Numbered from the stretch's first letter, positions 36,318-53,490 are shown. The stretch is DNA of 64,000 bases from Bacteroidota bacterium (GCA_033763735.1 JANRJY010000025.1:9917-73916); one strand, 5' to 3'. The notes: generated by a model not told the origin, from the sequence alone. Made by a program: numbers and translations.

Positions 36318-37559
36318 ATGTATAAAGAAGTTAATGTTTGCCGAATTTGCGGTAACACAAAATTTGAACCTATAGTTTCTCTTGGTGTCCAATCACTTAC
36401 CGGTGTTTTTCCAAAATCTATTGACGATAAAGTTGATAAAGGTCCCCTTGATTTAGTACAATGTAAAGGAGATAATTCATGTGGATTAGTACAATTAAAA
36501 CATTCTTTTAGTCATGAAGAAATGTATGGAATGAATTATGGGTATAGATCAGGGCTAAACAAATCTATGGTTATGCATTTGTCCTCAATAACAAAGAAAG
36601 TTTCTCAAATTATTGAATTAAAAGACAATGATGTAATAATTGATATTGGAAGCAATGATTCAACCTTATTGCAATCATATGCCCAGGTAACAAAGGCAAA
36701 ACTTAATTTAATAGGAATTGACCCAACCGGAATCAAGTTTAAAAAGTATTACCCTGAAAATATTAATTTGATTGCTGACTTTTTTTCTGCAAATATCTTT
36801 AAAAAGGCTTATCCAAACAAAAAAGCTAAAGTTGTTTCTTCAATTGCAATGTTTTACGATTTAGAAGACCCTACTTCATTTATGGAGGACATTTATAATG
36901 TGTTATCTGACGATGGAATTTGGATATTTGAACAAAGCTATCTTTTAACCATGTTGGAAGTCAATGCATATGACACAATTTGTCATGAACATATCGAATA
37001 TTATGCAATAAGACAAATTGAATGGATGGCTAAAAAAGTTGGTTTCAAGCTTGTTGATATTATCTTAAATGATATCAATGGAGGAAGTTTTCAAATAATT
37101 TGCACAAAGGCTATAAATAATAATATTAAATCAAGCAGTAATTTGGACAAATTAATAATCAATGAGAATGACAACCTTCATAAACTTTTGATTAATTATA
37201 AAATACAGGTTGAAAATCATCGTAATGAATTAATAAAATTATTAACCAAACTTAAAACTGAAGGCAAAAAAGTATTTGGTTATGGGGCCTCCACAAAGGG
37301 AAATGTTATATTACAATATTGCGGCATTGATAAAAATTTGATGCCTTACATCGCAGAAGTAAATGAAGATAAGTTTGGATCTTTTACACCAGGCACTCTA
37401 ATTCCAATTATCTCTGAAAATGAAGCAAGAGCATTAAAACCGGATTATTTCCTGGTTTTACCTTGGCATTTTAGAGCAGGCATTTTAGAAAGAGAAAAAG
37501 AGTTTTTAAAAAATGGAGGTAAATTCATTTTTCCATTGCCAAAAATTGAAATAGTTTGA
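36318..37559 (+). CDS. Zinc-ribbon SAM-dependent methyltransferase of the NDP-hexose C-methyltransferase (TylCIII-like) architecture
   Basis: N-terminal CRIC...C....C Cys cluster, a class I SAM fold (VIIDIGSNDSTLL), and a C-terminal domain (VFGYGASTKGNVILQYCG...YFLVLPWHF) typical of Methyltransf_13/14-type enzymes. Confidence 0.6.
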   Translation: MYKEVNVCRICGNTKFEPIVSLGVQSLTGVFPKSIDDKVDKGPLDLVQCKGDNSCGLVQLKHSFSHEEMYGMNYGYRSGLNKSMVMHLSSITKKVSQIIELKDNDVIIDIGSNDSTLLQSYAQVTKAKLNLIGIDPTGIKFKKYYPENINLIADFFSANIFKKAYPNKKAKVVSSIAMFYDLEDPTSFMEDIYNVLSDDGIWIFEQSYLLTMLEVNAYDTICHEHIEYYAIRQIEWMAKKVGFKLVDIILNDINGGSFQIICTKAINNNIKSSSNLDKLIINENDNLHKLLINYKIQVENHRNELIKLLTKLKTEGKKVFGYGASTKGNVILQYCGIDKNLMPYIAEVNEDKFGSFTPGTLIPIISENEARALKPDYFLVLPWHFRAGILEREKEFLKNGGKFIFPLPKIEIV

Positions 37560-38509
37560 TGAGAAAAACTGCTTTAATTGTTGGATTTACTGGACAAGAT
37601 GGTCAAATTCTATGGAAGTATCTTGAAAATTTAGGTTACAATTTAATAGGTATTTCAACAAACAAAATAATTTCGAACTATTATAGTCTAAATCACTCTA
37701 ATTTTAATATAAGTTCTGAATCAGATATTAAATCATTGATTTCAACTATATATATTGATGAAATATACTTTCTTGCAGCTGTGCACCAATCTTCTACTGA
37801 CGTACTTGATAACGAATTAGATTATTTTAGGAAAAGTAATGAAGTAAATTTTGTATCTCCAAGTACAATTCTTTCTTGTATTTTTAACTATTCAAAAAAG
37901 ACCAAATTTTTTTATGCTTCATCTTCTCACATTTTTAGAGGCTCAGTACAAACGCCACAAAATGAAGAAACAAAACCAGTTCCGTTGTGTATATACGGAA
38001 TTACAAAAACTTCTGGTACTTATATTACTCAGTACTTTGCAAATAAAGGTGTATTTGCTTCTGTGGGAATCTTATATAATCACGAGTCAATTTTTAGAGA
38101 TCGAAAATTCGTTTCACAAAAAATTATAAAAGGAGCAGTTGCAATCAAAAAAGGACTTTTAGATTCATTAACTTTGGGCTCATTGGATGCTAAAATTGAT
38201 TGGGGTTATGCACCTGATTTTGTAAAGGCTTATCATATGATCTTAAATATTTCAAAGCCAGATACTTTTATTATAAGTACATATAAGCTGACATCTATTG
38301 CTGATTTTGTAGAAGAAACCTTTAATCAGCTCGGACTGGACTGGAGAAAATATATTAAAATTGACAGTGAAATCATAAAGAAAGGCTTACAAAACAATCT
38401 TTTAGGAGATCATTCTAAGCTAAAAAATATGACTGGATGGTATCCTGAAACCACTTTTTCTGAAATGATTAAAATATTATTAGATTATGAACTTAGCAAC
38501 AATGGATAA
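37556..38509 (+). CDS. Gmd-family extended SDR (GDP-sugar 4,6-dehydratase/reductase-like)
   Basis: ALIVGFTGQDGQILWKYL (GxTGQDG), YGITK (YxxxK) and LYNHESIFRDRKFVSQKI. The usual T-S-E catalytic segment reads SSSHIF. The start overlaps the upstream stop (ATGA). Confidence 0.6.
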   Translation: MMRKTALIVGFTGQDGQILWKYLENLGYNLIGISTNKIISNYYSLNHSNFNISSESDIKSLISTIYIDEIYFLAAVHQSSTDVLDNELDYFRKSNEVNFVSPSTILSCIFNYSKKTKFFYASSSHIFRGSVQTPQNEETKPVPLCIYGITKTSGTYITQYFANKGVFASVGILYNHESIFRDRKFVSQKIIKGAVAIKKGLLDSLTLGSLDAKIDWGYAPDFVKAYHMILNISKPDTFIISTYKLTSIADFVEETFNQLGLDWRKYIKIDSEIIKKGLQNNLLGDHSKLKNMTGWYPETTFSEMIKILLDYELSNNG

Positions 38510-39242
38510 TTTATCAGAAATTCTTGTAGCAATTCCAACATATAATGAAGCTGAAAATGTCAAAAAATTATTTGAACAAATTTTTAAACTCAATTTCAAG
38601 AAAGATATTTTGTTTTTGGATGACAACTCTCCGGATGGAACAGGTGAAATAATTAAAATGATCCAATCAGAAAATAAAAATGTTTTTGCTATACATAGAA
38701 TAGGTAAGCTTGGAATTGGTAGTGCTCATCAAGAAATCATTAATTTTGCATATCAAAAAGGATATAAAATTCTTGTTACAATGGATTGTGATTTTACACA
38801 TTCCCCATCATCAATAATTGACTTCATTAATAACTCCGACAATTATGATGTAGTAGTAGGTTCAAGATATATGAAAAAAGATAGTCTCAAGGACTGGAAT
38901 CTAATCCGAAAATTTTTAACCAATTTTGGCCATATACTAACAAAGTATGTTTTAAATTTGAAAGAAGATGCAACAGGAGCCTTTCGATTATACAAATTAA
39001 ATAATATTCCAAAGCAACTTTTCTCATTAGTTGAGTCAAAAAGCTATTCTTTTTTCTTTGAAAGTCTGTTTATTATTTCCTTCAATAAATTTAAAATAAA
39101 AGAAATACCTATAGATTTGCCTTCACGTACTTATGGAAATTCAAAAATGGAAATAAAAGATGTTATTAAGAGTTTAAAATATTTGTATTTATTATTAATG
39201 AGAAAATATTTTAACAGGCAGTCCTTAATAATCAAGAATTAA
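38502..39242 (+). CDS. GT2 polyprenol-phosphate glycosyltransferase (DPM1/ArnC-like)
   Basis: ILVAIPTYNEAENV, FLDDNSPDGTGEII, VTMDCDFTH and VVVGSRYM match the dolichyl/undecaprenyl-phosphate sugar synthase layout. An alternative start lies at 38487. Confidence 0.65.
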   Translation: MDNLSEILVAIPTYNEAENVKKLFEQIFKLNFKKDILFLDDNSPDGTGEIIKMIQSENKNVFAIHRIGKLGIGSAHQEIINFAYQKGYKILVTMDCDFTHSPSSIIDFINNSDNYDVVVGSRYMKKDSLKDWNLIRKFLTNFGHILTKYVLNLKEDATGAFRLYKLNNIPKQLFSLVESKSYSFFFESLFIISFNKFKIKEIPIDLPSRTYGNSKMEIKDVIKSLKYLYLLLMRKYFNRQSLIIKN

Positions 39243-39243
39243 T

Positions 39244-39927
39244 ATGGCACTAACTTACGAACAAATAGAACAAGATTGGGAGATTTACTGGGGAGCTCAA
39301 GGTAAACCCACCAGTAAAACATATGATTTAATCGCAGAGTTTTACAGAAGAAATATTATTATTAAAATTCTGAATCATTTCTTAAAAAAACATTATAAAG
39401 AGCATGAAAATGTTTTGCATGCCGGATGCGGAAGTGGACAAGTTGATTTAGATGCTAATATTTACTTGAATATTACAGCTCTTGACATATCATCAAAAGC
39501 GCTTGAAATTTACAAAAAAGTTAATCCTTCTAATAAAAAAACAGTAAAGGGAACAATTTTTGATTTGCCGTTTGAAGACAACTCTTTTGATGGAATTTAT
39601 AACCTTGGAGTTATGGAACACTTTACTGAAGAAGAAATTCAACTGATCTTGAAAGAATTCAAAAGAGTAGTCAAAAAAGAAGGTAAGATTATTTTATTCT
39701 GGCCTCCTACCCGTGGAATCACTGTTAATTTCTTAGACTCAGTACATTTTATTTGTAATAAGATATTTCAAATGAATGTTAAACTCCATCCCGATGAGAT
39801 TACAAGAATCAGATCCAAAAAACATGCTCAAGAAATTATCGAAAAATCTGGAATGAATTTGATTGACTATTATTTTGGCATTAAAGATATATTCACTCAA
39901 GCAGTTATAGTTGCTCAAAAAAAATAG
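39244..39927 (+). CDS. Class I SAM-dependent methyltransferase
   Basis: VLHAGCGSGQVDL (motif I), DGIYNLGVMEHF and GKIILFWP. Confidence 0.7.
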   Translation: MALTYEQIEQDWEIYWGAQGKPTSKTYDLIAEFYRRNIIIKILNHFLKKHYKEHENVLHAGCGSGQVDLDANIYLNITALDISSKALEIYKKVNPSNKKTVKGTIFDLPFEDNSFDGIYNLGVMEHFTEEEIQLILKEFKRVVKKEGKIILFWPPTRGITVNFLDSVHFICNKIFQMNVKLHPDEITRIRSKKHAQEIIEKSGMNLIDYYFGIKDIFTQAVIVAQKK

Positions 39928-39935
39928 GCTTTGTT

Positions 39936-41717
39936 ATGAATTTGGACAAAAAAAATAAACTAAGCAATATACTTCCTTCTGTATTTGTTGCAATAGTAAT
40001 AATTAGTTTCAGCTTTAGTTTGTTTAAGAATATTTCTTACCCATTGCTTTGGAATGATGAAACTGATGCAGCTATGTGGTCAACCAGAATAATGGAGTTT
40101 GGCTATCCTAAAGTTCATGATGGTAAAAACAAAGTATTTTTAGTATATGCCCCAAATATGAAAATGGGCTATAAAAAGGAACATGATGCATATATTTATA
40201 TAACTTGGGGTGGGTATTATTTTGCGGTAATTGGAGAATTTCTTTCAAAATTTACAAACGACATTTATGTTAAAACGGCTTTAATGCGCATTCCTTTCGC
40301 TTTGGCCGGTTTTATTGGTATTATTTTGATGGTGTTATCGATCAAAGACTTTTTCCTCCAAAATCGAACATTACTTTGGTTAGCAATCATATTTGGTATT
40401 TTTGAAATTTTATCCATATCACTTGTATTACACATGCGAGAAGTACGATATTTTTCTTTAGTAATCTTTTTTACAGGAATATTGTTTTTTATATTTTTTA
40501 GGTTTCAGCTTCTTAATAAAATGTCATTAATCGCTTATAGTATTGCAATGACTATCTTGTTATTCTTAACATTCAATACTAATTTTATAGTTTTTGCAAT
40601 TTTTGTTGGAACAATTGGATTTTATCAATTCATTTTATTTTTATTTCAATTTAAAAATGGTAAATCATTTGACAAAAAATCAGGTAATACTGAATCATGG
40701 AAAGTCAGAATCATAAATCTATTTATTCAATATATACCTTTGTTTATTTCTATATTGTTGGCAATTCCACTGATTTCTTATTTTGAAATAATTGAATCAT
40801 CTGCTGAATTGTCAAAATTCAAAAATTTCAATTTAAATCTTTATTTTTCAAATCTTTCAAGTGTGTTAAAATACTTTACTAAACTTGAATATCTATATCT
40901 GGCAATCGTTGTCAAAATTATTCTTTTATTAACTTTTTTAACCGTAAAAAAATCTATATCCGAAAAACCAACCAAAAACAAAGAAAATGAAATTGTAATT
41001 ACTAAAATTCCATTTACAATCAATTATAAAATAATGGTTTCAAATTTTATGTTATTATTTATTTTAATTTATGCGCTTATTAATTGTCGATTACCATATT
41101 TTTATGTGCGCCATTTTATTGTATTACAACCTGTAATGTCACTTATGATGGTATTGGATATTTTTATTGTTTTTCAAATTTTTAATGAAAATGTTAAAAA
41201 AACCAGTATAACTTTTTCAAAAGCACTAATTTCTTTTGTCATTATTATTGCGTTTGCAGTTAACACAGGTAACAAATTAAAATATATTAATTTGCACTTA
41301 TATGAACTAACTCATCAATATAAAGGAGTGCTTGATTATATTATTCCCTATATTAAGGAAAACTATAAAAACCCTGAGAAACTAACAATTGCTACGAATT
41401 ATGAAGAATTAGCTTATATGTTTTACTTAAAATCTAAAACTACAATAGGTTTTATTAAAAATAATTTAGAAGAAGACAAAAAATATCAACCTGATATTAT
41501 TATTTACAGAAGAGGTTGGGGTTGGCAAAATGACCAAAATATTTTTAATGATTTCTTTCAAAAAGCCAAATACAAACCCATACAATTTCCGGTAGTGGAT
41601 TTCTATGTGAATAATATGCCAGAAATAAATGAAAAAGATCCGGTTACACATCAGTTTAAGACATTAACAACGAATGACCCTAATCAGATGATGACAATAT
41701 ATGTTAAAGAAGATTAA
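39936..41717 (+). CDS. Polytopic GT-C glycosyltransferase, ArnT/PMT_2 (GT39/83)-like
   Basis: 593 aa. TM1 is followed by YPLLWNDETDAAMWSTRIMEFGYP (DE...A..S..M..G as in ArnT-type enzymes), many TM helices, and a ~130-aa C-terminal soluble region. Confidence 0.55.
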   Translation: MNLDKKNKLSNILPSVFVAIVIISFSFSLFKNISYPLLWNDETDAAMWSTRIMEFGYPKVHDGKNKVFLVYAPNMKMGYKKEHDAYIYITWGGYYFAVIGEFLSKFTNDIYVKTALMRIPFALAGFIGIILMVLSIKDFFLQNRTLLWLAIIFGIFEILSISLVLHMREVRYFSLVIFFTGILFFIFFRFQLLNKMSLIAYSIAMTILLFLTFNTNFIVFAIFVGTIGFYQFILFLFQFKNGKSFDKKSGNTESWKVRIINLFIQYIPLFISILLAIPLISYFEIIESSAELSKFKNFNLNLYFSNLSSVLKYFTKLEYLYLAIVVKIILLLTFLTVKKSISEKPTKNKENEIVITKIPFTINYKIMVSNFMLLFILIYALINCRLPYFYVRHFIVLQPVMSLMMVLDIFIVFQIFNENVKKTSITFSKALISFVIIIAFAVNTGNKLKYINLHLYELTHQYKGVLDYIIPYIKENYKNPEKLTIATNYEELAYMFYLKSKTTIGFIKNNLEEDKKYQPDIIIYRRGWGWQNDQNIFNDFFQKAKYKPIQFPVVDFYVNNMPEINEKDPVTHQFKTLTTNDPNQMMTIYVKED

Positions 41718-41729
41718 TTATTAAAACAA

Positions 41730-43736
41730 ATGTCTTCGATTAAAAAAAAAGATACTAAAATTATTTCAATAGAGAATGCGAAACCTGAATTGAAGGGTAA
41801 TCTTATAATATTTGACCGTAAAGTCAAAATATTCATTTCTGTTTGCTTCATCGCATTTTTTATATGTGTTTTATTTAAATTACATGGATCTTCAATAGGG
41901 ATTTGGGATTCAATAACAGGAAATACAAGTCTTAAAAATAAAAGCGTAATCTTAGGAACACCAAAAAGTATTCGCTCAGATGAATGGCTTGTTCAGACTC
42001 CTTTTTTAATTTCTCAATTTAACAGAAAATTTTCAAATGAAAACGAATCATGGGGCGCATATAATTCACCTGTGGCAATGGGTGGCCCCGCAAATGATTT
42101 AACATCACATATTAAATTAAATTACCTTGGGTTTTATTTATTTAACATTGAGTACGGTTATTCCTTTTATTGGAATTTTAAAATTTATTTTCTCTTAATA
42201 TCCTCATTTCTGCTTTTTATGTTGCTTACTAAAAACAACTTTTGGTTGAGCATTTTTGGCTCTTTTTGGCTTTATTTGTCGAGTGGAGTTCAATGGTGGT
42301 TTTCAACAAGTCTGCCGGAAATGCTTATTTCTTTATGTATCATTACGACTTCTTTATTATATTTATCCTATGCAAAAAATCTTTTTCACATTATAATATC
42401 CTCTGTTTCAATACTCTTGTTTTCTTGGGTTCTTGTTTTTCATATTTATCCTCCTTTTCAATTATTAACTTTTTATACTATCGTAGTTTTATTCTTGGTT
42501 TTACTTTTAATGTATTGGGATAAAATTCTTTTTCGCAAAAATATTTATCTAAAAATATGTATATGTCTCGTTATTTTATCAATTGATATTTTATTGATTT
42601 ACTTTTTTTATATCGATACCAAACAAACTATTGAAATTGTTCAACAAACTATTTACCCAGGTCAAAGATTAGTTGATCATGCAAACTTTACCTGGTCAAG
42701 ATTTTTTGTCAATTTTTTTGATGTATTCTTAAATGAAACAAAGTTTCCTAACTTAAATGTTTGGTACAATATTTGTGAAAGTAGTGGATTTTTAATGCTT
42801 TTTCCTTTTATTATTCCTGCAATAGTATTTCAACAAATCAGAAAAAAAGCTATTGATTACACTTATACTATCATTTTATCATTAATTTTTTTGCTTACGT
42901 TTAGTTGCTTTGTTGAATTACCTGATTTTTTATATAAAATAACTTTATTAAGCATGATTTCATCCGTAAGATGCCATCTTTTTGTTGGATTTTTAAGTTT
43001 AGTTCTAACGATTTACTTTTTAAATGACATTTCTAAGAATTCAAAATTTACAAATCTGGAAAGGGTAATAACCATATCAATTGCTGCTTTAATTTATCTC
43101 TCAATTTATTTAAATATTAAAGAAATTTTGGATCAGTATATCACTGGAAATCAATTTATTATTGCTTTAATATTAATTTTAATTCTGACTAGTCTGACTT
43201 TGTTTAATTTTAAATTCAGAGAATTAGTTTTTGTTGGCATAATAATCTTATTCCTTTCTTCTAATTTATTGGTTAATCCAATAACCAAAGGTCTTGGCCC
43301 CATATTAAATAATCCGCTCTATAAACAAGTGAAAAATTTAAATAATCAAAATTCGAAATGGGTTGTGTTCGGACAAATGACTTTTTCAAATTTTATCAAA
43401 ACTACCGGTGCAAAAGTGATAAGTGGCGTAAATTATACTCCTGAGAAAGAAAAGTTAGATATTCTAGATTCAAAAAATCAATTTCAGCACATACACAATA
43501 GATATGCTCATATTTCATTTTATCCTTTTATTAACGGAACTGATTCTGTAGCTTTTGTTTACGATGGGAATAAATTTACAGATTCTTATACTATAGCCAT
43601 GGACCCTTGTTCTCCAAAACTAAAAGCATTAGGGGTACAATATTATTTTTTTACTTATCAACCACAACCAGCAGAAGTAAGGTGTCTTGATTTGGTAGAC
43701 CAAAATCCATTTCCAATATACAAACTAAAAGACTAA
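41730..43736 (+). CDS. Large polytopic membrane protein with C-terminal soluble domain; paralog of 34291..36315
   Basis: 668 aa. Shares with 34291: GSSIxxW, KSVIxGxPxxIRxDEWxVxTP, LTKNNFxLSxFGxFWxYLSxxxQWWFST, YPP, TxYPGxR, LPxFLYKIxLL, VNPIxxGLxPIxxNPLY, TGAKVIxGVNY, NRYAHIxxYPFIN and FTYxPQPxEVR. Confidence 0.5.
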   Translation: MSSIKKKDTKIISIENAKPELKGNLIIFDRKVKIFISVCFIAFFICVLFKLHGSSIGIWDSITGNTSLKNKSVILGTPKSIRSDEWLVQTPFLISQFNRKFSNENESWGAYNSPVAMGGPANDLTSHIKLNYLGFYLFNIEYGYSFYWNFKIYFLLISSFLLFMLLTKNNFWLSIFGSFWLYLSSGVQWWFSTSLPEMLISLCIITTSLLYLSYAKNLFHIIISSVSILLFSWVLVFHIYPPFQLLTFYTIVVLFLVLLLMYWDKILFRKNIYLKICICLVILSIDILLIYFFYIDTKQTIEIVQQTIYPGQRLVDHANFTWSRFFVNFFDVFLNETKFPNLNVWYNICESSGFLMLFPFIIPAIVFQQIRKKAIDYTYTIILSLIFLLTFSCFVELPDFLYKITLLSMISSVRCHLFVGFLSLVLTIYFLNDISKNSKFTNLERVITISIAALIYLSIYLNIKEILDQYITGNQFIIALILILILTSLTLFNFKFRELVFVGIIILFLSSNLLVNPITKGLGPILNNPLYKQVKNLNNQNSKWVVFGQMTFSNFIKTTGAKVISGVNYTPEKEKLDILDSKNQFQHIHNRYAHISFYPFINGTDSVAFVYDGNKFTDSYTIAMDPCSPKLKALGVQYYFFTYQPQPAEVRCLDLVDQNPFPIYKLKD

Positions 43737-43741
43737 CTTAA

Positions 43742-44674
43742 GTGAATATTGCTGTAATTATACCTTGTTATAAAGTAGAAAATCATATTGAAAATGTTAT
43801 TAATACATTACCCAGTATAATAACTTATATTATTGTAGTTAATGATTGTTCTCCTGACAATACTAAATTGATTCTTAATAAAATAGGTACAACAAATAAT
43901 AAAGTTATTTACTTAGAACATACGCAGAATCAAGGTGTAGGGGGGGCAATGAAAACAGGGTTTGTAAAAGCCTTAGAACTTAATGCTGATATTATTATTA
44001 AACTTGACGGGGATGGTCAAATGAACCCAAAATATATTCCAGAATTTATTAAACCAATTATCGAAGGGAAAGCAGATTTTACCAAAGGGAATAGGTTCAG
44101 AAATTACCGAACCATTCAAAGAATGCCTATTATAAGACGCATTGGAAATTTAGGATTGAGCTTTTTAACAAAAGCAGCCTCAGGTTATTGGAATATTTTT
44201 GATCCTACGAACGGTTATTTCGCTATGAATATAACCACACTTAAGCTAATAAATCTTGAAACGCTTCATAACCGTTATTTTTTTGAAAGTTCGTTGTTAA
44301 TTGAAATGTATCATAGTGATACAGTTATTCAAGATATTCCTATCGATGCTCAGTATGGAGAGGAGATTTCAAATTTGTCTGTAACAAAAACATTATTTGA
44401 ATTCCCACCAAAATTATTCTTAGCTTTCATTAAAAGAATTTTATTCAAATATTTTCTATATGATTTTAATATAGCTTCAATTTATATAATGTTAGGTTTT
44501 CCAATATTTACATTGGGTGCTTGGTATGGTTTAATCAATTATATTAAATACACTCATTTACATATTGTAGCTCCGACCGGTACTGTAGTTATTCCAACTT
44601 TGCTCATTACTTTGGGATTTCAGTTAATACTTTCAGCAGTTAATTTTGATGTATCCAATTATCCAAAAAAATAA
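43742..44674 (+). CDS. GT2 bactoprenol-phosphate glycosyltransferase (GtrB/ArnC-like) with C-terminal TM helices
   Basis: GTG start. IAVIIPCYKVENHI, VVNDCSPDNT, KLDGDGQMNP, and two C-terminal hydrophobic helices (IYIMLGFPIFTLGAWYGLI, VVIPTLLITLGFQLILSAV). Confidence 0.7.
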   Translation: MNIAVIIPCYKVENHIENVINTLPSIITYIIVVNDCSPDNTKLILNKIGTTNNKVIYLEHTQNQGVGGAMKTGFVKALELNADIIIKLDGDGQMNPKYIPEFIKPIIEGKADFTKGNRFRNYRTIQRMPIIRRIGNLGLSFLTKAASGYWNIFDPTNGYFAMNITTLKLINLETLHNRYFFESSLLIEMYHSDTVIQDIPIDAQYGEEISNLSVTKTLFEFPPKLFLAFIKRILFKYFLYDFNIASIYIMLGFPIFTLGAWYGLINYIKYTHLHIVAPTGTVVIPTLLITLGFQLILSAVNFDVSNYPKK

Positions 44675-44711
44675 TAAAGTAATTATTTAAAACTTTACCA
44701 AATTGAATAAA

Positions 44712-45422
44712 ATGGAAATATCTGATTTACCGGTATTATTATTAGCAGGGGGTAAAGGAACCAGAATACAACATTTACTCAATGATTTACCAAAGCCGAT
44801 GTATCCTGTATTCAACAGACCATTTTTGGACTATCAAATTGATTATTTGTTAAAATTTGGGTTTCAAAATTTTTATATTTCTACTGGTTATCAAGGTCAT
44901 GTAATTGCAAACTATTACCGAAATAATAAAAATATCAATATAATTCACGAGACTCAGCCACTTGGCACTGGAGGAGGCATTTTATTTGCGATGTCAAAAA
45001 TCAAAGAGCCTAATGTAATTGTTCTAAATGGTGACACACTTTATTTATTAGATTTTTTTTCTTTTGTCAATCATGCATTAAACAACCCATTACACACATG
45101 TATAGCTTTGAAAACTGTTGTTGACTCCACTAGATACGGTACAGTAATATTAGATAACTTTAATAAAATAACCCATTTTATTGAAAAAGGGAAAAGCAAC
45201 ACCGGACCTGGATTAATTAATGCGGGAATATATTATTTGAACAAGCAACAAATCTTAAATTATAGTTTTCCTGAAATATGCAGTATTGAAGAAACCATTT
45301 TTCCCAAAATAATAGAATCAGGTATTTATGGATTTAAGGCTCATAATGAATTTATTGATATTGGCACCCCAGAAACATTACATGAAATAGAAAATTTTGT
45401 CAAAGTAAACAACCTAATATAG
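44712..45422 (+). CDS. hddC: Sugar-1-phosphate nucleotidylyltransferase, D-glycero-alpha-D-manno-heptose-1-phosphate guanylyltransferase-like
   Basis: LLAGGKGTRIQHLLNDLPKPM (GxGTR), LGTGGGI and LNGDT, with a size of about 236 aa. The track ORF uses a TTG at 44703. Specificity is inferred from the neighbouring hddA/gmhA. Confidence 0.6.
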   Translation: MEISDLPVLLLAGGKGTRIQHLLNDLPKPMYPVFNRPFLDYQIDYLLKFGFQNFYISTGYQGHVIANYYRNNKNINIIHETQPLGTGGGILFAMSKIKEPNVIVLNGDTLYLLDFFSFVNHALNNPLHTCIALKTVVDSTRYGTVILDNFNKITHFIEKGKSNTGPGLINAGIYYLNKQQILNYSFPEICSIEETIFPKIIESGIYGFKAHNEFIDIGTPETLHEIENFVKVNNLI

Positions 45423-45431
45423 TAATTTTAA

Positions 45432-46259
45432 ATGGCTGCATTGACGGTAATTATGACTTTTTTTAATGAATCTCCTGATTTATTGAAACGCTCGGTATAT
45501 TCGATTTTAAACCAAACTTTCAATGATTTCGAGTTTATTATTATAGCTGGAAACCCTGAAAATTCTGCAGGCATTAATTTTATACTTAATGCTCAAAAAA
45601 CAGACTCAAGAATTATCTTTAAAGTATATGAAACTAAACTATTGATGACAGTATGTCTAAATATTGCAATAAAAATGGCTAAAACTCCTTTAATAGCCAT
45701 TCAAGAAGCAGATGATGAGTCTTTGCCTCTAAGATTTGAAAAGCAAATTGAAGTTTTTAATACCAATTCAAATATTGACGTAGTAGGAACCGCTATTAGA
45801 TATGTAGACAATTTTACAGGAAAAGAAATAGTAACCAGATATTACCCCCAATATAGTTTTAAAGAATTTAACAGATTTGCAGCTATTGCACACCCAACAG
45901 TAATGGCAAAAAAATATTTATATGAAAAATACGGATTTTATAGCGAAGAAGAGAAACATAGGAACAGCCCTGATTTTGAATTATGGGTAAGGTGGAAGCA
46001 ACAAGGTGTGATTTTTTATAATATTCAGGAAGTGCTATTTCTATATTACCAAAGTCAAGATAATGGAAGAAATAAGAATGTAAAAAAAACACTTAAATCT
46101 GTCATAAATATTAAGGAACACCATTTAAGTAAATTAAAATTTACATTTAATGATTATCTATTTTTGTTTGCAGAAAAAACATTATTACTTTTTCCTGCCT
46201 CGTTTATTTCAAAATTGTTTTATGTTTGGGGTCAAACTCAAAAAAAATCAAATAATTGA
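45432..46259 (+). CDS. Family 2 glycosyltransferase
   Basis: LTVIMTFFNESPDLLKRSVYSILNQTFNDFEFIII and the acidic EADDES motif. Confidence 0.7.
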   Translation: MAALTVIMTFFNESPDLLKRSVYSILNQTFNDFEFIIIAGNPENSAGINFILNAQKTDSRIIFKVYETKLLMTVCLNIAIKMAKTPLIAIQEADDESLPLRFEKQIEVFNTNSNIDVVGTAIRYVDNFTGKEIVTRYYPQYSFKEFNRFAAIAHPTVMAKKYLYEKYGFYSEEEKHRNSPDFELWVRWKQQGVIFYNIQEVLFLYYQSQDNGRNKNVKKTLKSVINIKEHHLSKLKFTFNDYLFLFAEKTLLLFPASFISKLFYVWGQTQKKSNN

Positions 46260-46262
46260 TTA

Positions 46263-47249
46263 ATGATTATTTCAAAAACACCACTTAGAATAAGCTTTTT
46301 TGGCGGAGGCACTGATTACCCCGATTATTTTAAACAATATGGGGGCGCAGTTTTATCAACTTCAATTAATAAATACGTATATATCTCAGTAAATCAAATA
46401 TCTGCAATTTCTGAATATAAATACAAAAATACATATTCAAAAGTTGAACAAGTACAAACTATAGACGAAATCATTCATCCTTCTGTTAGGGAATGTTTGC
46501 GATACATGAAAATTAATGATGGTCTTGAAGTACATACAATCAGTGATTTACCTGCAAAAACAGGGTTAGGATCTTCTTCTTCGTTCACTGTGGGACTGCT
46601 AAATGCTTTGCATGAGTATCAAAACACAAAAAGAACTGCTTTGGAACTGGCTAAGGAAGCAATATATGTAGAGCAAAAATTAATAGGTGAAAAAGTAGGT
46701 GTTCAAGATCAAAGTGCTGCTGCTGTTGGGGGGCTTAATTATTTTGAGTTTAATACAGATGAATCAATCTCCTATAAGCCGGTACCCATATCAAAAGAAA
46801 GAATTGTTGCTTTTAAAAATCATATGTTACTTTTTTATACAGGTGTGCAAAGATTTGCAGAGGATGTATTAAAAGAACAAATTGAAAAAACAAAAACAGG
46901 GGAAGTAAAGCAAGATCTTGCTTCCATTCGAAAAATGGTAGATAAAGGATATGAAATTCTCACTTCAAATAGTTCTCTTTTGGAGTTCGGAAAACTTTTG
47001 GATGAAGCCTGGAAACTTAAAAAGAACTTATCATCTTCAATTTCAAACAATTACCTGGATGAAATGTATAATACTGCAATTAATGCCGGAGCCTCTGGAG
47101 GAAAACTATTAGGAGCTGGCGGAGGTGGATTTTTTCTCTTTTTTGCAGATCCATCTAAACACATTGAAATTCGAAAAGCATTAAATCAATATCAAGAAAT
47201 CCAATTCGATTTTGATAATGATGGAAGTAAAATCATATTCGTACACTAA
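46263..47249 (+). CDS. hddA: GHMP sugar kinase, D-glycero-alpha-D-manno-heptose-7-phosphate kinase-like
   Basis: TPLRISFFGGGTDYPDY, PAKTGLGSSSSFTVGL (GHMP motif II) and GGKLLGAGGGGFFLFF (motif III). Confidence 0.7.
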   Translation: MIISKTPLRISFFGGGTDYPDYFKQYGGAVLSTSINKYVYISVNQISAISEYKYKNTYSKVEQVQTIDEIIHPSVRECLRYMKINDGLEVHTISDLPAKTGLGSSSSFTVGLLNALHEYQNTKRTALELAKEAIYVEQKLIGEKVGVQDQSAAAVGGLNYFEFNTDESISYKPVPISKERIVAFKNHMLLFYTGVQRFAEDVLKEQIEKTKTGEVKQDLASIRKMVDKGYEILTSNSSLLEFGKLLDEAWKLKKNLSSSISNNYLDEMYNTAINAGASGGKLLGAGGGGFFLFFADPSKHIEIRKALNQYQEIQFDFDNDGSKIIFVH

Positions 47250-47261
47250 ATTAACTTAAGA

Positions 47262-48182
47262 ATGAAAAAAATATTTGATTACATAGTCTCGAAAAGTTTT
47301 GATATGGTATATTTTTTTACTGATAAAATGGGTATATTTTATTATATTTCCCCTTTTTTTACGAAATTAAATGAATTAATTCATCTTTCGAATACGATTT
47401 TTGTAAGAAATCTTATAAAAAAACAATCAAAAAACAACAATATAATTGCTCCCAATGTAAATAATTCTTTGGAAAACACGGGTGGAATCAAAATTAGTGA
47501 AGAACAAATTATTGAAAAAATTAACTCAAAAGTTTTAATTGGCTCTAAACCTTCAAGGTTAGCTAATTTTGAAGGAGTGGCTTTAGATGATGCTTTGAGC
47601 TATAAGTATGAATGGAGACACTTAAGTTTTTACCCAATAACGAAAGCAATTGATGCCATTTCTAAAAAATATTTAAAAATCAATCATTTCAGTTTGTTAG
47701 AATTGGGATGTGGAGCTGGAAGTATATTTGAATTTTTAAAATACAATGATTGCAAAGAGTATTTAGGATTAGATGCTAATATTATTGCGTTAAAAAACAG
47801 CCCTTACATAAAAGGATTTGAGAGTAATTTTAAGGAGGTGAATTTAGATCAAGAAATTAATTTTCAATATAAATTTGATATTATTATTTCATTTGAGGTT
47901 CTGGAACATTTAAAAAAAACCACTATACCAAACATTTTAAAAACAATAAAAAATCACATGCATGATAATTCAATATTTTTAGGTACGGCCTGTCTTAGAG
48001 AAATGGAAGTGCATTTGACAGTTGAGTCAAAAACTTGGTGGTTAAAACAATTCGAAGAAGCAGGATTAATACCACATCCTAAGGAAAAGGAAATTATTGA
48101 AATTTTACAAGATCATCACCCTTATAATTGGAATCTAGCTACATCAATATTGTTTGCAATGGTTAAAAAAAATGATAATTAA
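47262..48182 (+). CDS. SAM-dependent methyltransferase (C-terminal class I fold) with an uncharacterised N-terminal region
   Basis: LLELGCGAGSIFEFL (motif I) and FDIIISFEVLEHL. Confidence 0.6.
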   Translation: MKKIFDYIVSKSFDMVYFFTDKMGIFYYISPFFTKLNELIHLSNTIFVRNLIKKQSKNNNIIAPNVNNSLENTGGIKISEEQIIEKINSKVLIGSKPSRLANFEGVALDDALSYKYEWRHLSFYPITKAIDAISKKYLKINHFSLLELGCGAGSIFEFLKYNDCKEYLGLDANIIALKNSPYIKGFESNFKEVNLDQEINFQYKFDIIISFEVLEHLKKTTIPNILKTIKNHMHDNSIFLGTACLREMEVHLTVESKTWWLKQFEEAGLIPHPKEKEIIEILQDHHPYNWNLATSILFAMVKKNDN

Positions 48183-48555
48183 ATTTATTTCATATTTGGT
48201 ACTTTTTTCTCTTTCCGCAGCAGGTTCAACTACATTAATGGGAGACAAAGACATGTTAGCCGGAAATTTGTTATCTAAAGAAGGAATTTTAACTTTGATC
48301 ATGAATTGGAGATTTTATTTAGCAATTTTTTTAGCTATTTTGAGCAGATTCACCTTTGTTCTTATGAATAGTGAACTTTTAAAAATAGAATATACGCGAA
48401 ATAACGCGACAAATATTACTACAATTGTTTCGATTGCTTCAATAATTGTGGTCTTTTTTTCAAACTATATATTTTTGAATGAATGGCTTACATCAAAGCA
48501 ATTTGTTGGTTCAGTTATTATCTTATTTGGAGTTTGGCTAGTTTTAACAAGATAA
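48172..48555 (+). CDS. Small four-helix DMT/EamA-half membrane protein, ArnE/ArnF- or GtrA-type lipid-linked sugar flippase candidate
   Basis: About 127 aa with four hydrophobic helices and the EamA-like C-terminal helix FVGSVIILFGVWLVL. The ATG at 48172 overlaps the upstream gene by 11 nt. The track ORF uses a TTG at 48154. Confidence 0.5.
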   Translation: MIIKFISYLVLFSLSAAGSTTLMGDKDMLAGNLLSKEGILTLIMNWRFYLAIFLAILSRFTFVLMNSELLKIEYTRNNATNITTIVSIASIIVVFFSNYIFLNEWLTSKQFVGSVIILFGVWLVLTR

Positions 48556-48565
48556 ATACAAAATT

Positions 48566-49774
48566 ATGAAATGTAGAGTATGTGATTCTGAACACTTAGA
48601 GTTAGCAGTGGATTTAGGAAACCAACCTTGGTGTAACAATTTTCTTAAAAAAGAAGAAATAGGTAAGGAGCCTTATTATCCACTTAGATTAATGTATTGC
48701 CACGATTGTGCTACAACACAACTTGATTATACCGTTAAAAAGGAAATAATGTTTGGCGATCACACTTATCTATCAGGCGTTACCAAATCGTTATCTGCTC
48801 ATTTTGAGCGCATAGCAAAGGAAACCGATGAATTATTTTGTAAAGGTAAAAATGAGAAATGGGTTTTGGATATTGGCTCAAATGATGGTACTCAGCTAAA
48901 ACATTTTTTAAAATTAGGATACAATGTGGTGGGGGTCGAATCTTCTAAAACCACCGCAAAAATGGCAAATGATGCAGGCGTATATACCATTAACGAATAC
49001 TTTAATGAAGATTTAATCAATAAATATAACTTTAAAGAAAAGTTTGATTTATTCAATGCCGCTGGAGTTTTTTTTCATTTAGAAGAACTCCATTCTGTGA
49101 CTCGAGGCATTAAAAAAGGGCTTAAAAAAGAGGGGGTTTTTGTTGTTCAGTTTTTGTATATGAAGCGAATTGTAGAAAACTTAGCTTTTGATCAAATATA
49201 TCACGAACATCTACTCTATTATACTCTTAAAACTATTGAAGTCCTTTTGAATAGACATGGCTTAAGTATGTTTGATGCTTACGTTGACCCAATTCATGGA
49301 GGTTCAGTTATTGGCTATATAACACACAAAGAAGCCAATAAACCAGCATCTGATCGACTACAAATATTAAGAGAGGAAGAAGAAAAGGATAAAATCAATG
49401 AATTTTCAACCTATGTAGAGTTTGCAGAAAGAATTAAAAAAATGAAGGAAGAAAATCTAAAATATTTGACTTCAGCGAAAAAAGCAGGGAAAAGAATTTG
49501 GGGAATGGGAGCACCTGTCAAAGGCAACACAATGCTTAATTATTTTGGTGTTGGAACTCAATACATTGATTTTCTTGTTGAAAAGAATAAACTGAGAAAA
49601 GGATTATATTCACCTGGCCAACATATTCCAATAGTTATTGAGGAAGAACTAACGGAATTGCCGGATATATATTATGGTTTAGCGTGGAACTTCAAGAAGG
49701 AGATTTTGGCAAATAACCAAGATTTAATTAAAAAAGGAGTAGAATTTTACTTTCCAGTAAATCCTAAAGAATAA
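48566..49774 (+). CDS. Zinc-ribbon SAM-dependent methyltransferase of the NDP-hexose C-methyltransferase architecture (paralog of 36318..37559)
   Basis: CRVC...C..C Cys cluster, VLDIGSNDGTQL, and a C-terminal domain IWGMGAPVKGNTMLNYFG...YYGLAWNF. Confidence 0.6.
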   Translation: MKCRVCDSEHLELAVDLGNQPWCNNFLKKEEIGKEPYYPLRLMYCHDCATTQLDYTVKKEIMFGDHTYLSGVTKSLSAHFERIAKETDELFCKGKNEKWVLDIGSNDGTQLKHFLKLGYNVVGVESSKTTAKMANDAGVYTINEYFNEDLINKYNFKEKFDLFNAAGVFFHLEELHSVTRGIKKGLKKEGVFVVQFLYMKRIVENLAFDQIYHEHLLYYTLKTIEVLLNRHGLSMFDAYVDPIHGGSVIGYITHKEANKPASDRLQILREEEEKDKINEFSTYVEFAERIKKMKEENLKYLTSAKKAGKRIWGMGAPVKGNTMLNYFGVGTQYIDFLVEKNKLRKGLYSPGQHIPIVIEEELTELPDIYYGLAWNFKKEILANNQDLIKKGVEFYFPVNPKE

Positions 49775-49776
49775 AA

Positions 49777-50703
49777 ATGAATATTTTAGTAACTGGGGCA
49801 ACGGGGTTTCTTGGACAATTTCTAATTCAAAAATTAGAAGCTGAGGGCCATAATGTTGTAAAAATAAATTCAAAAAACGCAGATTTAACAACGCAAGTAT
49901 CACTGAATAATTTTAATTCAGTAAAATACGACCTAATTTATCACTTGGCTGCATGGACGCAGGCAGGTGATTTTTGTCTGTACCATCCAGGTGAACAATG
50001 GGTTATAAATCAAAAAATCAACACTAATGTTTTAGGCTGGTGGTCAGAATTTCAACCGCAGTCAAAATTTATAAGCATGGGTACAAGTTGTTCCTATGCT
50101 CCTGAAAATCAACTTATTGAAAAAAATTATTTATTAGGCGAACCAATTGATAGTTTGTATACATATGCACATACTAAAAGAATGTTACAAATAGGGCTTC
50201 AGTCTTTAAATAAACAATATGGCCTTAAATATCTAACTGTAGTGCCTTCTACTTTGTATGGTGAAAGTTATCATAATGATGGCAGACAAATGCATTTCAT
50301 ATTTGATTTAATAAGAAAAATTATCAGAGGAAAAGAATTTGGAGAAGAGGTTATATTATGGGGAGATGGATTCCAAAAAAGAGAACTTATTTATGTCAAA
50401 GATTTTGTAGAAGCCCTATATTTTTTATCAGGTATTTCAGAAAATGAAATTATCAATATAGGTGGAGGCAAAGAGTATACAATTCGTGAATTCGCAGATT
50501 CAATTTGCAATATTGTTGGATATGATCATTCTAAAATTATATATGACACATCAAAATATACAGGTGCAAAATCAAAATTTTTGTCAATTGAAAAATTAAT
50601 GAAAATTTATCCAAAATTCAGTCAAATATCACTTGAATCAGGTTTAAGAAAAACTATAGATTGGTTTTATACTTCCAAAGCGTATTTACCCCCAAGTAAT
50701 TAA
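49777..50703 (+). CDS. GDP-L-fucose-synthase-like SDR (NDP-4-keto-6-deoxy sugar 3,5-epimerase/4-reductase family)
   Basis: ILVTGATGFLG, MGTSCSYAPE (compare GSSCIYP in Fcl/GMER) and YAHTK (YxxxK). Confidence 0.6.
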   Translation: MNILVTGATGFLGQFLIQKLEAEGHNVVKINSKNADLTTQVSLNNFNSVKYDLIYHLAAWTQAGDFCLYHPGEQWVINQKINTNVLGWWSEFQPQSKFISMGTSCSYAPENQLIEKNYLLGEPIDSLYTYAHTKRMLQIGLQSLNKQYGLKYLTVVPSTLYGESYHNDGRQMHFIFDLIRKIIRGKEFGEEVILWGDGFQKRELIYVKDFVEALYFLSGISENEIINIGGGKEYTIREFADSICNIVGYDHSKIIYDTSKYTGAKSKFLSIEKLMKIYPKFSQISLESGLRKTIDWFYTSKAYLPPSN

Positions 50704-50723
50704 ACCCCAAATTTTCTTATGAG

Positions 50724-50757
50724 CTAAACGATAAAATCAATTTGTTTTATCGTTTAG
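50724..50757 (+). terminator. Strong hairpin after the 18-gene block (terminator or attenuator)
   Basis: CTAAACGATAAAA (50724-50736) pairs with TTTTATCGTTTAG (50745-50757), a 13-bp stem. It is AT-rich and has no clean T-run after it. Confidence 0.5.
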
Positions 50758-50772
50758 TATAAAATATATTTG
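50741..50772 (+). promoter_or_regulatory. Candidate Bacteroidota sigma-A promoter for gmhA
   Basis: TTTG at 50741-50744, a 20-nt spacer, then TATATTTG at 50765-50772 (TAnnTTTG), 29 nt before the gmhA ATG. Confidence 0.45.
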
Positions 50773-50801
50773 CGACCATTTTATTCGAATTACCTCGCAC
50801 C

Positions 50802-51380
50802 ATGTTAGTAAAAAATAATTTTAGTTTAGCAGCAAAAGTTTTGTCTGATTTTAGTAATGAAGAAAATTTTAAAAAAATTGAGCTTGCTGCCAGTTGGATG
50901 ATTGAATCAGTAAAAAACGGAGGAAAAGTAATAAGTTGTGGTAATGGCGGTTCCATGAGCGATGCAATGCATTTTGCTGAAGAGATGACCGGTCGTTTTC
51001 AAAAAAACCGACCTGCTATTGCAGCTGTTGCTATTTCGGACCCTGCTCATATAACTTGTGTTGCTAATGATTACGGATATGAATTTATTTTCTCCAGATT
51101 CGTAGAATCGGTAGGGACTAAAAACGATGTGTTATTAGGAATCAGCACCAGTGGTAATAGTCAAAATGTTATAAACGCAGTTGAAGCTGCTAAGAAAAAA
51201 GGAATAAAAACAGTGGTTTTGACGGGCAAAGATGGAGGAAAGTTAGCCTCATTAGCAGATCTTGAAATTCGAGTGGCACATCTTGGTTGGGCAGACAGAA
51301 TACAAGAAGTTCATATCAAAATAATTCACACGCTTATTCAATTAATAGAACAGGCTATTTATCCTGAACTTTGTAATTAA
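50802..51380 (+). CDS. gmhA: D-sedoheptulose-7-phosphate isomerase (phosphoheptose isomerase)
   Basis: SIS domain with [48 protein letters not shown] and [10 protein letters not shown]. Confidence 0.85.

Positions 51381-53490
<2,110 letters not shown>

Follow-up and report, generated by a model that had tools for sequence, protein, structure and literature searches.

A GDP-heptose gene cluster with a predicted C-methylation branch in a Bacteroidota bacterium

We analysed a 64-kb stretch of DNA (64,000 nucleotides, hereafter the window) from a Bacteroidota bacterium (GCA_033763735.1, JANRJY010000025.1:9917-73916), in which an earlier reading made from the sequence alone (the sequence-only reading) had proposed that three genes, gmhA, hddA and hddC, direct the synthesis of a GDP-linked heptose. 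The heptose core is a known pathway in a new host. Encoded with it are an orthologue of the Campylobacter jejuni GDP-heptose dehydrogenase Cj1427, a sugar C-methyltransferase and a reductase related to GDP-L-fucose synthase (Fcl), and the combination of a Cj1427-type oxidase with such a C-methyltransferase turns out to be widespread and undescribed. The operon at 31.7–52.3 kb probably serves the synthesis and export of modified sugars destined for an envelope glycan, with a heptose branch that would lead to a GDP-C-methyl-heptose and, more tentatively, would proceed via a lipid carrier.

Results

The core enzymes of GDP-heptose synthesis

The window is low in G+C (26–36%), and the heptose genes lie inside a run of 20 co-directional genes at 31686–52322 that are separated by intergenic gaps of −29 to +98 bp (Table 1). 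All three open reading frames (ORFs) of the sequence-only reading, together with every motif that it quoted, were present where it had placed them. The GmhA ORF (50802–51380) carries a 15-residue motif at nt 50940–50984 and ISTSGNS at 51141–51161, the GHMP kinase ORF (46263–47249) carries PAKTGLGSSSSFTVGL at 46551–46598 and GAGGGGFF at 47112–47135, and the nucleotidyltransferase ORF, which starts at either TTG 44703 or ATG 44712, carries GGKGTR at 44748–44765. Pfam detected SIS_2 in the first (2e-28), GHMP_kinases_N/C in the second (2e-15 and 3e-8) and NTP_transferase in the third (9e-29). The three ORFs are not chance occurrences, because these domains are present and the genes belong to a co-directional run of 20.

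On homology, the assignment of 50802–51380 as GmhA is secure, as the protein passed the equivalog cut-offs of both NF001628 (277.5 bits, cut-off 265) and TIGR00441 (236.9 bits, cut-off 209.45). The kinase has the GHMP domains PF00288 and PF08544 and is therefore not of the HldE/PfkB type. Its top NCBIfam model was HddA (175.2 bits), ahead of fucokinase (104 bits) and mevalonate kinase (86 bits), and its best PDB matches were 3k85 from Bacteroides thetaiotaomicron, WcbL (4usm/4usk) from Burkholderia pseudomallei and 4n3o from C. jejuni (4e-45 to 1e-40), with weaker matches to fucokinase (1e-18) and galactokinase (2e-14). The sequence-only reading had suggested profile comparison as a check on specificity, and this comparison, together with that against the PDB, placed the kinase nearest to the heptokinases, not to fucokinase. 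In WcbL, the substitutions R13A, D22A, S118A/S119A/S120A, Q162L and D163A each abolish activity, and D163 is the proposed catalytic base (PMC4691232). These residues correspond in a phmmer alignment to R9, D18, S104–106, Q148 and D149 of the window kinase. When 17 family members were aligned, S104 proved nearly invariant and the other residues fully so. The nucleotidyltransferase is a 239-aa protein with one, RmlA-like, domain; its best PDB match was HddC of Yersinia pseudotuberculosis (6jq8/5xhw, 6e-33), followed by mannose-1-phosphate guanylyltransferases of the ManC type (1e-22), and its top NCBIfam model was likewise HddC (136.6 bits).

A Cj1427-type dehydrogenase beside gmhA

A gene for a short-chain dehydrogenase/reductase (SDR), outside the coordinates of the sequence-only reading, begins six bases past the end of gmhA (51387–52322). 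Its product matched PDB 6vo6/6vo8 with an E-value of 1e-128, and 191 of 308 residues were identical (62%) over the full length and without gaps. This PDB chain was tied to Cj1427 through a published primer, Cj1427cF918 (PMC3546167), the reverse complement of which encodes RAFKMMKV; as the 6vo6 chain contains this peptide at about residue 299, the chain in 6vo6/6vo8 is Cj1427. The presence of a 62%-identical Cj1427 orthologue beside gmhA is the strongest single argument for GDP-heptose as the nucleotide sugar, and it would also support, indirectly, a specificity of the nucleotidyltransferase for GTP and heptose-1-phosphate. The proposal of a GmhA/HddA/HddC route to GDP-heptose is supported by the GmhA cut-offs, the rankings of the kinase and transferase, the conserved WcbL residues, gene linkage and the adjoining Cj1427 orthologue.

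Gene neighbourhoods of the kinase family

Window proteins, together with an E. coli GmhB query that was validated by its matches, were mapped by tblastn onto 89 loci around relatives of the kinase. Of these loci, 49 had about 10 kb on both sides of the kinase (full-flank loci) and came from many phyla. The nearest relatives of the kinase are found in Chitinophagaceae, Saprospiraceae and other Bacteroidota, and a scan of a genome collection gave, among the matches listed, relatives of 43–52% identity from other phyla and not from the closest Bacteroidota genomes. Among the 49 full-flank loci, 40 encoded a Cj1427-like SDR beside the kinase family member (median identity of 57% over all 89); HddC-like proteins were encoded in 33, Fcl-like proteins in 31, GmhA in 15 and a HAD-type GmhB in 12. 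Complete gmhA-hddA-gmhB-hddC sets were present in at least 8 of the 89 loci (L011, L031, L042, L053, L055, L066, L076 and L088), and kinase orthologues in other phyla are grouped with gmhA, HAD-type gmhB and hddC. Because of these counts and complete sets, the kinase family as a whole appears to behave as the heptokinase of the GDP-heptose pathway.

A 59%-identical kinase orthologue from Saprospiraceae (GCA_016718505.1; L002/L003) stood alone between genes for an SMC-like ATPase and a PlsC-type acyltransferase, with no heptose gene within 10 kb. Therefore, members of the kinase family can occur outside such clusters, or else this one serves some other function.

A C-methyltransferase and reductase coupled to the Cj1427-type oxidase

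The protein encoded at 48566–49774 combines a Methyltransf_13 zinc domain, an S-adenosylmethionine (SAM) domain and a Methyltransf_14 domain (Pfam, 2e-21 and 2e-48). Its PDB matches, from MtmC (4rv9, 2e-63) through KijD1 and TcaB9 down to 3e-47, were all 3-C-methyltransferases of nucleoside diphosphate (NDP)-4-keto-sugars, and in alignment with MtmC it keeps the CxxC...CxxC pattern and the YHEH active-site motif. An Fcl-like SDR begins two bases past its end; GDP-L-fucose synthase was the best NCBIfam model for this protein (148.5 bits, cut-off 500), and GDP-fucose synthases in the PDB were matched at about 1e-28.

When the C-methyltransferase was used to scan metagenome contigs, 80 orthologous loci of 58–77% identity were obtained. 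There was room for a downstream neighbour in 58 of these, and in 48 an Fcl-like orthologue (at least 50% identity) came directly after the C-methyltransferase. Seventeen loci in which the C-methyltransferase gene had 6 kb or more to both sides formed a well-flanked subset, in which Cj1427-like and HddA proteins were each encoded in 16 loci, HddC in 15, GmhA in nine, GmhB in four and a protein resembling GDP-mannose 4,6-dehydratase (GMD) in two. A Nostocaceae locus (L031) contained, in order, a Wzm/Wzt ABC transporter, Cj1427-like, HddC, HddA, a large glycosyltransferase, an FkbM methyltransferase, the C-methyltransferase (74% identity), the Fcl-like SDR (67%), GmhA and a HAD-type GmhB, with no GMD in the locus. 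The C-methyltransferase/Fcl-like pair is tightly and repeatedly coupled to the Cj1427-type oxidase across several phyla. At the equivalent position in three loci (L004, L006 and L008) an RmlC-like epimerase was followed by a reductase 53–58% identical to the Fcl-like SDR; the C-methyltransferase of the window occupies the slot of this epimerase.

The absence of gmhB

The statement of the sequence-only reading that the window holds no GmhB phosphatase was confirmed by four approaches. A scan for HAD motif I and a phmmer search with E. coli GmhB were negative in all six frames of the 64-kb window, a profile hidden Markov model (HMM) built from 27 locus-linked GmhB-like sequences and E. coli GmhB gave a best E-value of 0.25 in the six frames, and Pfam scans of nearly all window ORFs of at least 100 aa found no phosphatase. 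By the same profile HMM, gmhB was also missing from the close Bacteroidota loci L004, L006, L008 and L027. Across the wider kinase family, 27 loci carried a HAD-type gmhB; the gene was absent from 37 of the 49 full-flank loci, including eight of the 15 with gmhA. In C. jejuni the capsule pathway uses the GmhB protein Cj1152, which is encoded in the lipooligosaccharide cluster and outside the capsule cluster (PMC10680097), and in B. thetaiotaomicron a GmhB that prefers the alpha-anomer is linked to capsule synthesis (PMC8204981).

Because most related loci and the C. jejuni capsule cluster also do without it, the absence of gmhB from the locus is ordinary, and indeed the usual state for such clusters. 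The gap noted by the sequence-only reading is thus real for the window but not remarkable, and by analogy gmhB would be supplied in trans in this genome.

A separate GMD-like cassette

The operon also contains a four-gene cassette that encodes a C-methyltransferase of ~417 aa, a GMD-like SDR of ~317 aa, an overlapping family 2 glycosyltransferase (GT2) of ~245–250 aa and a methyltransferase of ~226 aa. The GMD-like SDR scored 179 bits with the gmd model (cut-off 415) and matched true GMDs at 3e-47, against 1e-8 for the solved C. jejuni heptose 4,6-dehydratase 7us5. The cassette recurs in L006 and L171–L174, where genes for TPR or PMT_2 membrane proteins come next; in L171–L174 neither a GHMP kinase (hddA) nor a nucleotidyltransferase (hddC) gene was found within 8 kb of it. 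A divergent SIS gene adjoins it in L171–L173, with a product 35% identical to the window GmhA that scored 82 bits on the gmhA model (cut-off 209). The GMD-like gene is part of a separate conserved cassette, and the Fcl-like gene is not its partner. The cassette contains no C4 reductase, which points to a reductase gene outside it or to a chemistry unlike the usual GMD route. The starting sugar could be either GDP-mannose or GDP-heptose, and the GMD-like SDR may accordingly be either a GMD or an enzyme of the DmhA type, as the sequence-only reading had suggested. The C-methyltransferase of the cassette is 29% identical to that at 48566–49774. The cassette is conserved in many Bacteroidota, one of its member proteins being listed in 100 index blocks.

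DUF7657 proteins and a possible lipid-carrier route

The 668-aa DUF7657/DUF7654 membrane protein models as a GT-C fold. An AlphaFold model made from a 43-sequence alignment reached a pLDDT of 89 and a pTM of 0.91, and its top 12 Foldseek matches in the PDB were all GT-C proteins (STT3, PglB, DPY19 and ArnT; probability 0.94–1.00), with AftD and EmbB lower in the list. A profile search of the PDB with DUF7657 gave no meaningful match at the sequence level. In the family alignment R82 and D84 are invariant and lie within an RSDEW consensus past the first helix; this motif might correspond to the conserved acidic residue that GT-C enzymes have in the first extracytoplasmic loop.

The neighbours of the DUF7657 protein include GT2s of 251 and 310 aa, for which the best NCBIfam models were polyprenyl- or dolichyl-phosphate sugar synthases (PpgS, PgfS, ArnC and AglJ), all below cut-off. 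The 310-aa GT2 has two hydrophobic C-terminal segments that are putative membrane helices, and its orthologues (63–65% identical) adjoin DUF7657 and heptose genes in L006 and L008, the order in L008 being GmhA, DUF7657, GT2-311, Cj1427-like and HddC. Relatives of DUF7657 elsewhere adjoin a small GT2 and small membrane proteins of the EamA or DUF2304 families, as in L176, where a 116-aa EamA protein is encoded beside the DUF7657 gene. The sequence-only reading had remarked that feeding a GDP-heptose into a polyprenyl-phosphate/GT-C route would be unusual. The remark was reasonable, and a periplasmic route of this kind appears plausible from the models, because the GT-C fold of DUF7657 and the nature of its neighbours match how the GtrB/GtrA/GtrC and ArnC/ArnE-F/ArnT systems are laid out. 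The literature that we searched contained nothing relevant on DUF7657, nor on GDP-heptose together with GT-C enzymes and undecaprenyl; relative to that literature, a heptose donor on a polyprenyl carrier would be new.

Members of the DUF7657/DUF7654 family (e.g., proteins P0175, P0184, P0187 and P0200) also occur in Streptococcus (S. uberis, S. suis and S. danieliae), Clostridia and Paenibacillus, and the family may have a role in the decoration of Gram-positive cell-wall polysaccharides.

Discussion

A proposed pathway to a GDP-C-methyl-heptose

From homology and conserved neighbourhood we propose that GmhA would convert sedoheptulose-7-phosphate to the 7-phosphate of D-glycero-D-manno-heptose and that the HddA-type kinase would then phosphorylate O1 to give the alpha-1,7-bisphosphate. 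The 7-phosphate would be removed, on the precedent of C. jejuni, by a phosphatase encoded elsewhere, either GmhB or a substitute. The HddC-type transferase would next form GDP-heptose, and the Cj1427 orthologue would oxidise C4 to a 4-keto sugar, both steps again being predicted from homology and neighbourhood. Family chemistry and neighbourhood suggest that the TcaB9/MtmC-type C-methyltransferase would methylate a carbon beside the ketone via an enolate. As every one of the closest solved homologues is a sugar 3-C-methyltransferase, C3 is the more probable site; C5, at which NovU-type enzymes methylate, is possible. Reduction of C4 by the Fcl-like SDR, predicted from family chemistry and a strongly conserved neighbourhood, would yield GDP-C-methyl-heptose, to which class I methyltransferases could add O-methyl groups. 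More tentatively, fold and adjacency suggest that the 310-aa GT2 may load the sugar onto polyprenyl phosphate, that the small EamA protein may flip the polyprenyl-linked sugar and that a DUF7657 protein, as a predicted GT-C enzyme, may transfer it to a periplasmic acceptor.

The five-gene cassette of Cj1427-like, HddC, HddA, C-methyltransferase and Fcl-like proteins has representatives in Bacteroidota, cyanobacteria, Chlamydiae and Saccharibacteria as well as in many metagenomes. A bolder claim, which taken as a whole we regard as doubtful, is that this cassette constitutes a widespread, uncharacterised GDP-C-methyl-heptose pathway, the product of which is here linked to polyprenyl phosphate as its carrier and transferred in the periplasm by DUF7657 as a new GT-C family.

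Several observations weigh against the proposed pathway. The kinase and transferase scored far below their NCBIfam equivalog cut-offs (175.2 bits against 600 for HddA and 136.6 bits against 300 for HddC), and the two therefore belong to the HddA and HddC lineages as divergent members and are no close orthologues of the enzymes already characterised. The transferase stands only a little apart from the ManC type: a comparison with mannose-1-phosphate guanylyltransferases, which the sequence-only reading had considered as a competing specificity, kept HddC as the nearest relative in both the PDB and NCBIfam, but the NCBIfam margin was small (136.6 bits against 131.1 bits for a mycobacterial ManC-type model). 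No phosphatase for the third step was found within the 64-kb window. The locus has a second C-methyltransferase and a GMD-like enzyme, so that cross-talk between the two branches is possible, and methylation could fall on either C3 or C5. The Foldseek TM-scores of the DUF7657 model were low (0.3–0.44), and neither of the polyprenyl-phosphate-type GT2s is tied to a given nucleotide sugar. We found no C-methyl heptose, heptose C-methyltransferase or pathway of this kind in the literature searched, and we know of no C-methyl heptose, which leaves the predicted product without a precedent in chemistry.

Alternative explanations

In the sequence-only reading, the GMD-like and Fcl-like SDRs were taken as DmhA- and DmhB-type enzymes that yield a 6-deoxy-heptose, which would leave the C-methyltransferases to serve another sugar. 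Both SDRs are indeed in the operon, DmhA of Yersinia is a relative of GMD, and the divergent SIS gene stands beside the GMD-like cassette in three loci, but as the main modification such tailoring was not supported and is unlikely: the Fcl-like gene pairs with the C-methyltransferase and with Cj1427-like clusters, only two of the 17 well-flanked loci have a GMD-like gene, the GMD-like cassette recurs without hddA or hddC close by, its SDR is far nearer to true GMDs than to the solved heptose 4,6-dehydratase, and the Cj1427 orthologue already provides a 4-keto intermediate. The C-methyltransferase/Fcl-like pair might instead act on GDP-4-keto-6-deoxymannose supplied by the GMD-like enzyme, giving a 6-deoxy-3-C-methyl-hexose that resembles virenose or evalose, while the heptose is oxidised and reduced only or left unmodified. 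The proposed route to GDP-virenose in Coxiella joins a GMD to a candidate C-methyltransferase and to an enzyme of the Fcl type (PMC3204966), and all three enzyme types are encoded in the window. We nevertheless consider this improbable, since orthologues of the C-methyltransferase are almost always accompanied by Cj1427-like, HddA and HddC proteins and almost never by a GMD, the Nostocaceae locus joins the pair to a complete heptose set without any GMD, and the GMD-like gene has a C-methyltransferase of its own.

Two further explanations concern the core pathway. The organism might lack GmhB altogether and either bypass the step, for instance with GDP-heptose-7-phosphate as the intermediate, or use a non-HAD phosphatase, possibly an unassigned protein of the operon. 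Neither the window nor its four close Bacteroidota counterparts contain a HAD gene, several proteins in these loci have no family assignment, and a gmhB knockout of Helicobacter pylori retains some production of mature lipopolysaccharide (LPS), so other activities can substitute (PMC8204981). Provision of gmhB in trans is, however, a documented solution in C. jejuni, B. thetaiotaomicron has its alpha-anomer-preferring GmhB, and 27 loci of the wider kinase family have a HAD-type gmhB; we accordingly give little credence to an organism without the enzyme. That the kinase and transferase activate a hexose, in fucose or mannose salvage, with the SIS protein functionally unconnected, would be compatible with their scores below the equivalog cut-offs and with the near-equal score of the transferase on the ManC-type model. 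This fucokinase/ManC reading was rejected as very improbable, given that fucokinase and galactokinase matches were at least 25 orders of magnitude weaker than those to heptokinases, that the kinase family co-locates with gmhA and gmhB, and that a 62%-identical orthologue of a GDP-heptose-specific dehydrogenase is encoded beside gmhA.

Relation to known systems

The nearest counterpart to the proposed GDP-C-methyl-heptose pathway is the heptose pathway of the C. jejuni capsule, which consists of Cj1423 (HddC), Cj1424 (GmhA), Cj1425 (HddA), Cj1427 (C4-dehydrogenase), Cj1430 (epimerase) and Cj1428 (reductase). The same four enzymes lead up to the 4-keto intermediate in both systems, gmhB is outside the cluster in C. 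jejuni and absent from that of the window, and both have a nearby methyltransferase and an Fcl-like C4 reductase as the final step. L004, L006 and L008 keep the Cj1430/Cj1428-like arrangement of epimerase and reductase found in Campylobacter, whereas in the window the slot of the RmlC-like C3/C5 epimerase is filled by a TcaB9/MtmC-type C-methyltransferase, from which a branched sugar is predicted. The window kinase and transferase are related only distantly to their Campylobacter counterparts, and they are surrounded by polyprenyl-phosphate-type GT2s and GT-C-like proteins, in contrast to the Kps-type capsule system of C. jejuni. The route of Aneurinibacillus thermoaerophilus and Y. pseudotuberculosis proceeds through GmhA, HddA, GmhB, HddC, DmhA and DmhB, and the HddC of Yersinia is the best solved match of the window transferase. 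By comparison, the cluster in the window has no gmhB and has a Cj1427-type oxidase instead of a demonstrated DmhA, and its GMD-like gene belongs to a different cassette.

The C-methyltransferase shares with TylC3, TcaB9, KijD1 and MtmC the zinc-binding N-terminus, the SAM and C-terminal domains and the YHEH motif. The routes to antibiotic deoxysugars and to Coxiella GDP-virenose follow the same logic, in which a 4-keto sugar is methylated at an adjacent carbon and then reduced; the known C-methyltransferases act on dTDP-linked 2,6-dideoxy or 6-deoxy hexoses, whereas the predicted substrate in the window is a GDP-heptose that keeps its C6 and C7 hydroxyls. As in the three-part GtrB/GtrA/GtrC, ArnC/ArnE-F/ArnT and CsbB/YfhO systems, a GT2 with C-terminal helices, a small multi-helix protein and a large GT-C-fold protein are encoded together in the window. 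Here, though, DUF7657 is only a distant fold match to GT-C, and the donor would be a GDP-derived heptose.

The coupling of the C-methyltransferase and reductase to a Cj1427-type oxidase predicts a new class of branched heptose, and the analysis offers a first functional context and a GT-C fold assignment, from modelling, for the DUF7657/DUF7654 family. If the bolder claim above is true, a polyprenyl-linked heptose would be the first lipid-phosphate-linked heptose donor and the product a branched seven-carbon sugar without described precedent. The branched heptose and the DUF7657 family would each add to the understanding of surface-sugar chemistry in bacteria and of glycosylation via lipid carriers.

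Other features of the operon and its surroundings

Further genes of the operon are listed with the heptose genes in Table 1. Methyltransferases fill the slot after the kinase in L004, L006 and L008 as they do in the window, and in L006 and L008 the 275-aa GT2 is conserved next to the 310-aa GT2.

Table 1. Genes of the operon at 31686–52322, with predicted functions and the evidence for each
Feature	Coordinates	Strand	Evidence
GmhA, sedoheptulose-7-phosphate isomerase	50802..51380	+	NCBIfam NF001628, TIGR00441; Pfam SIS_2
HddA-type GHMP kinase (1-kinase for the 7-phosphate of D-glycero-D-manno-heptose, alpha-anomer route)	46263..47249	+	NCBIfam, PDB matches, residues, neighbourhood
HddC-type heptose-1-phosphate guanylyltransferase	44703..45422 (ATG alternative 44712)	+	NCBIfam HddC top; Yersinia HddC in PDB
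Cj1427-type GDP-heptose C4-dehydrogenase (SDR)	51387..52322	+	PDB 6vo6/6vo8
NDP-4-keto-sugar C-methyltransferase (TylC3/TcaB9/MtmC type)	48566..49774	+	Pfam Methyltransf_13, Methyltransf_14; PDB MtmC
Fcl-like SDR, predicted C4-ketoreductase of methylated 4-keto-heptose	49777..50703	+	NCBIfam GDP-L-fucose synthase top model
Class I SAM methyltransferase, possibly a sugar O-methyltransferase	47262..48182	+	Pfam Methyltransf_23/12
Small EamA-type membrane protein, candidate polyprenyl-phosphate-sugar flippase, ArnE/F-like	48154..48555	+	Pfam EamA 30.4 bits (cut-off 28.2)
GT2 glycosyltransferase, 275 aa	45432..46259	+	Pfam Glycos_transf_2
GtrB/ArnC/AglJ-like GT2, 310 aa, candidate polyprenyl-phosphate sugar synthase	43742..44674	+	Pfam GT2; NCBIfam AglJ, PpgS below cut-off
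DUF7657/DUF7654 membrane protein, 668 aa, predicted GT-C glycosyltransferase	41730..43736	+	Pfam DUF7657 5e-102, DUF7654 8e-27
Second DUF7657/DUF7654 paralogue, 35% identical to the first	34291..36315	+	Pfam DUF7657 3e-95
Four-gene cassette: C-methyltransferase; GMD-like SDR; DPM1/PpgS-like GT2; methyltransferase	36318..37559; 37556..38509; 38487..39242; 39244..39927	+	Pfam, NCBIfam
Polytopic membrane protein, 593 aa, no family match	39936..41717	+	Pfam, NCBIfam negative
Membrane protein, 453 aa, weakly PMT_2-like (possible GT-C)	32305..33666	+	Pfam PMT_2 19.7 bits (cut-off 26.1); NCBIfam LA_3751/2 24 bits

Neither the product of the first operon gene (31686–32303, 205 aa) nor the 593-aa membrane protein matched a Pfam or NCBIfam family, and the latter showed no relation to DUF7657 (hhalign) or to the PMT_2-like protein. 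A RibD_C/DHFR-like reductase of 179 aa (33671–34210) is encoded between the PMT_2-like membrane protein and the first DUF7657 gene. A gene on the opposite strand (52309–53490) is convergent with the operon, shares 14 bp with the 3' end of the Cj1427-like gene and is followed by a gene for a TolC-like outer-membrane protein (53502–54950). The convergent gene encodes a polytopic protein of 393 aa that matched Wzy_C/O-antigen ligase weakly (24.7 bits, below cut-off).

Farther from the operon (~10 kb), the precomputed annotation of an identical Logan contig places a WbqC-family protein (PF08889) at 62172–62798; the usual link of this family is to LPS sugar modification. Judging from the translation, the gene at 57867–58742 encodes a leucine-rich-repeat protein that starts like a signal peptide and has a TPR-like segment in its N-terminal part. 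Amid housekeeping genes, at 20196–21194, lies the gene for a 332-aa SDR of the GalE/GMD fold (Epimerase, 2.5e-63), which adjoins a gene for a Uma2-family endonuclease (21237–21821).

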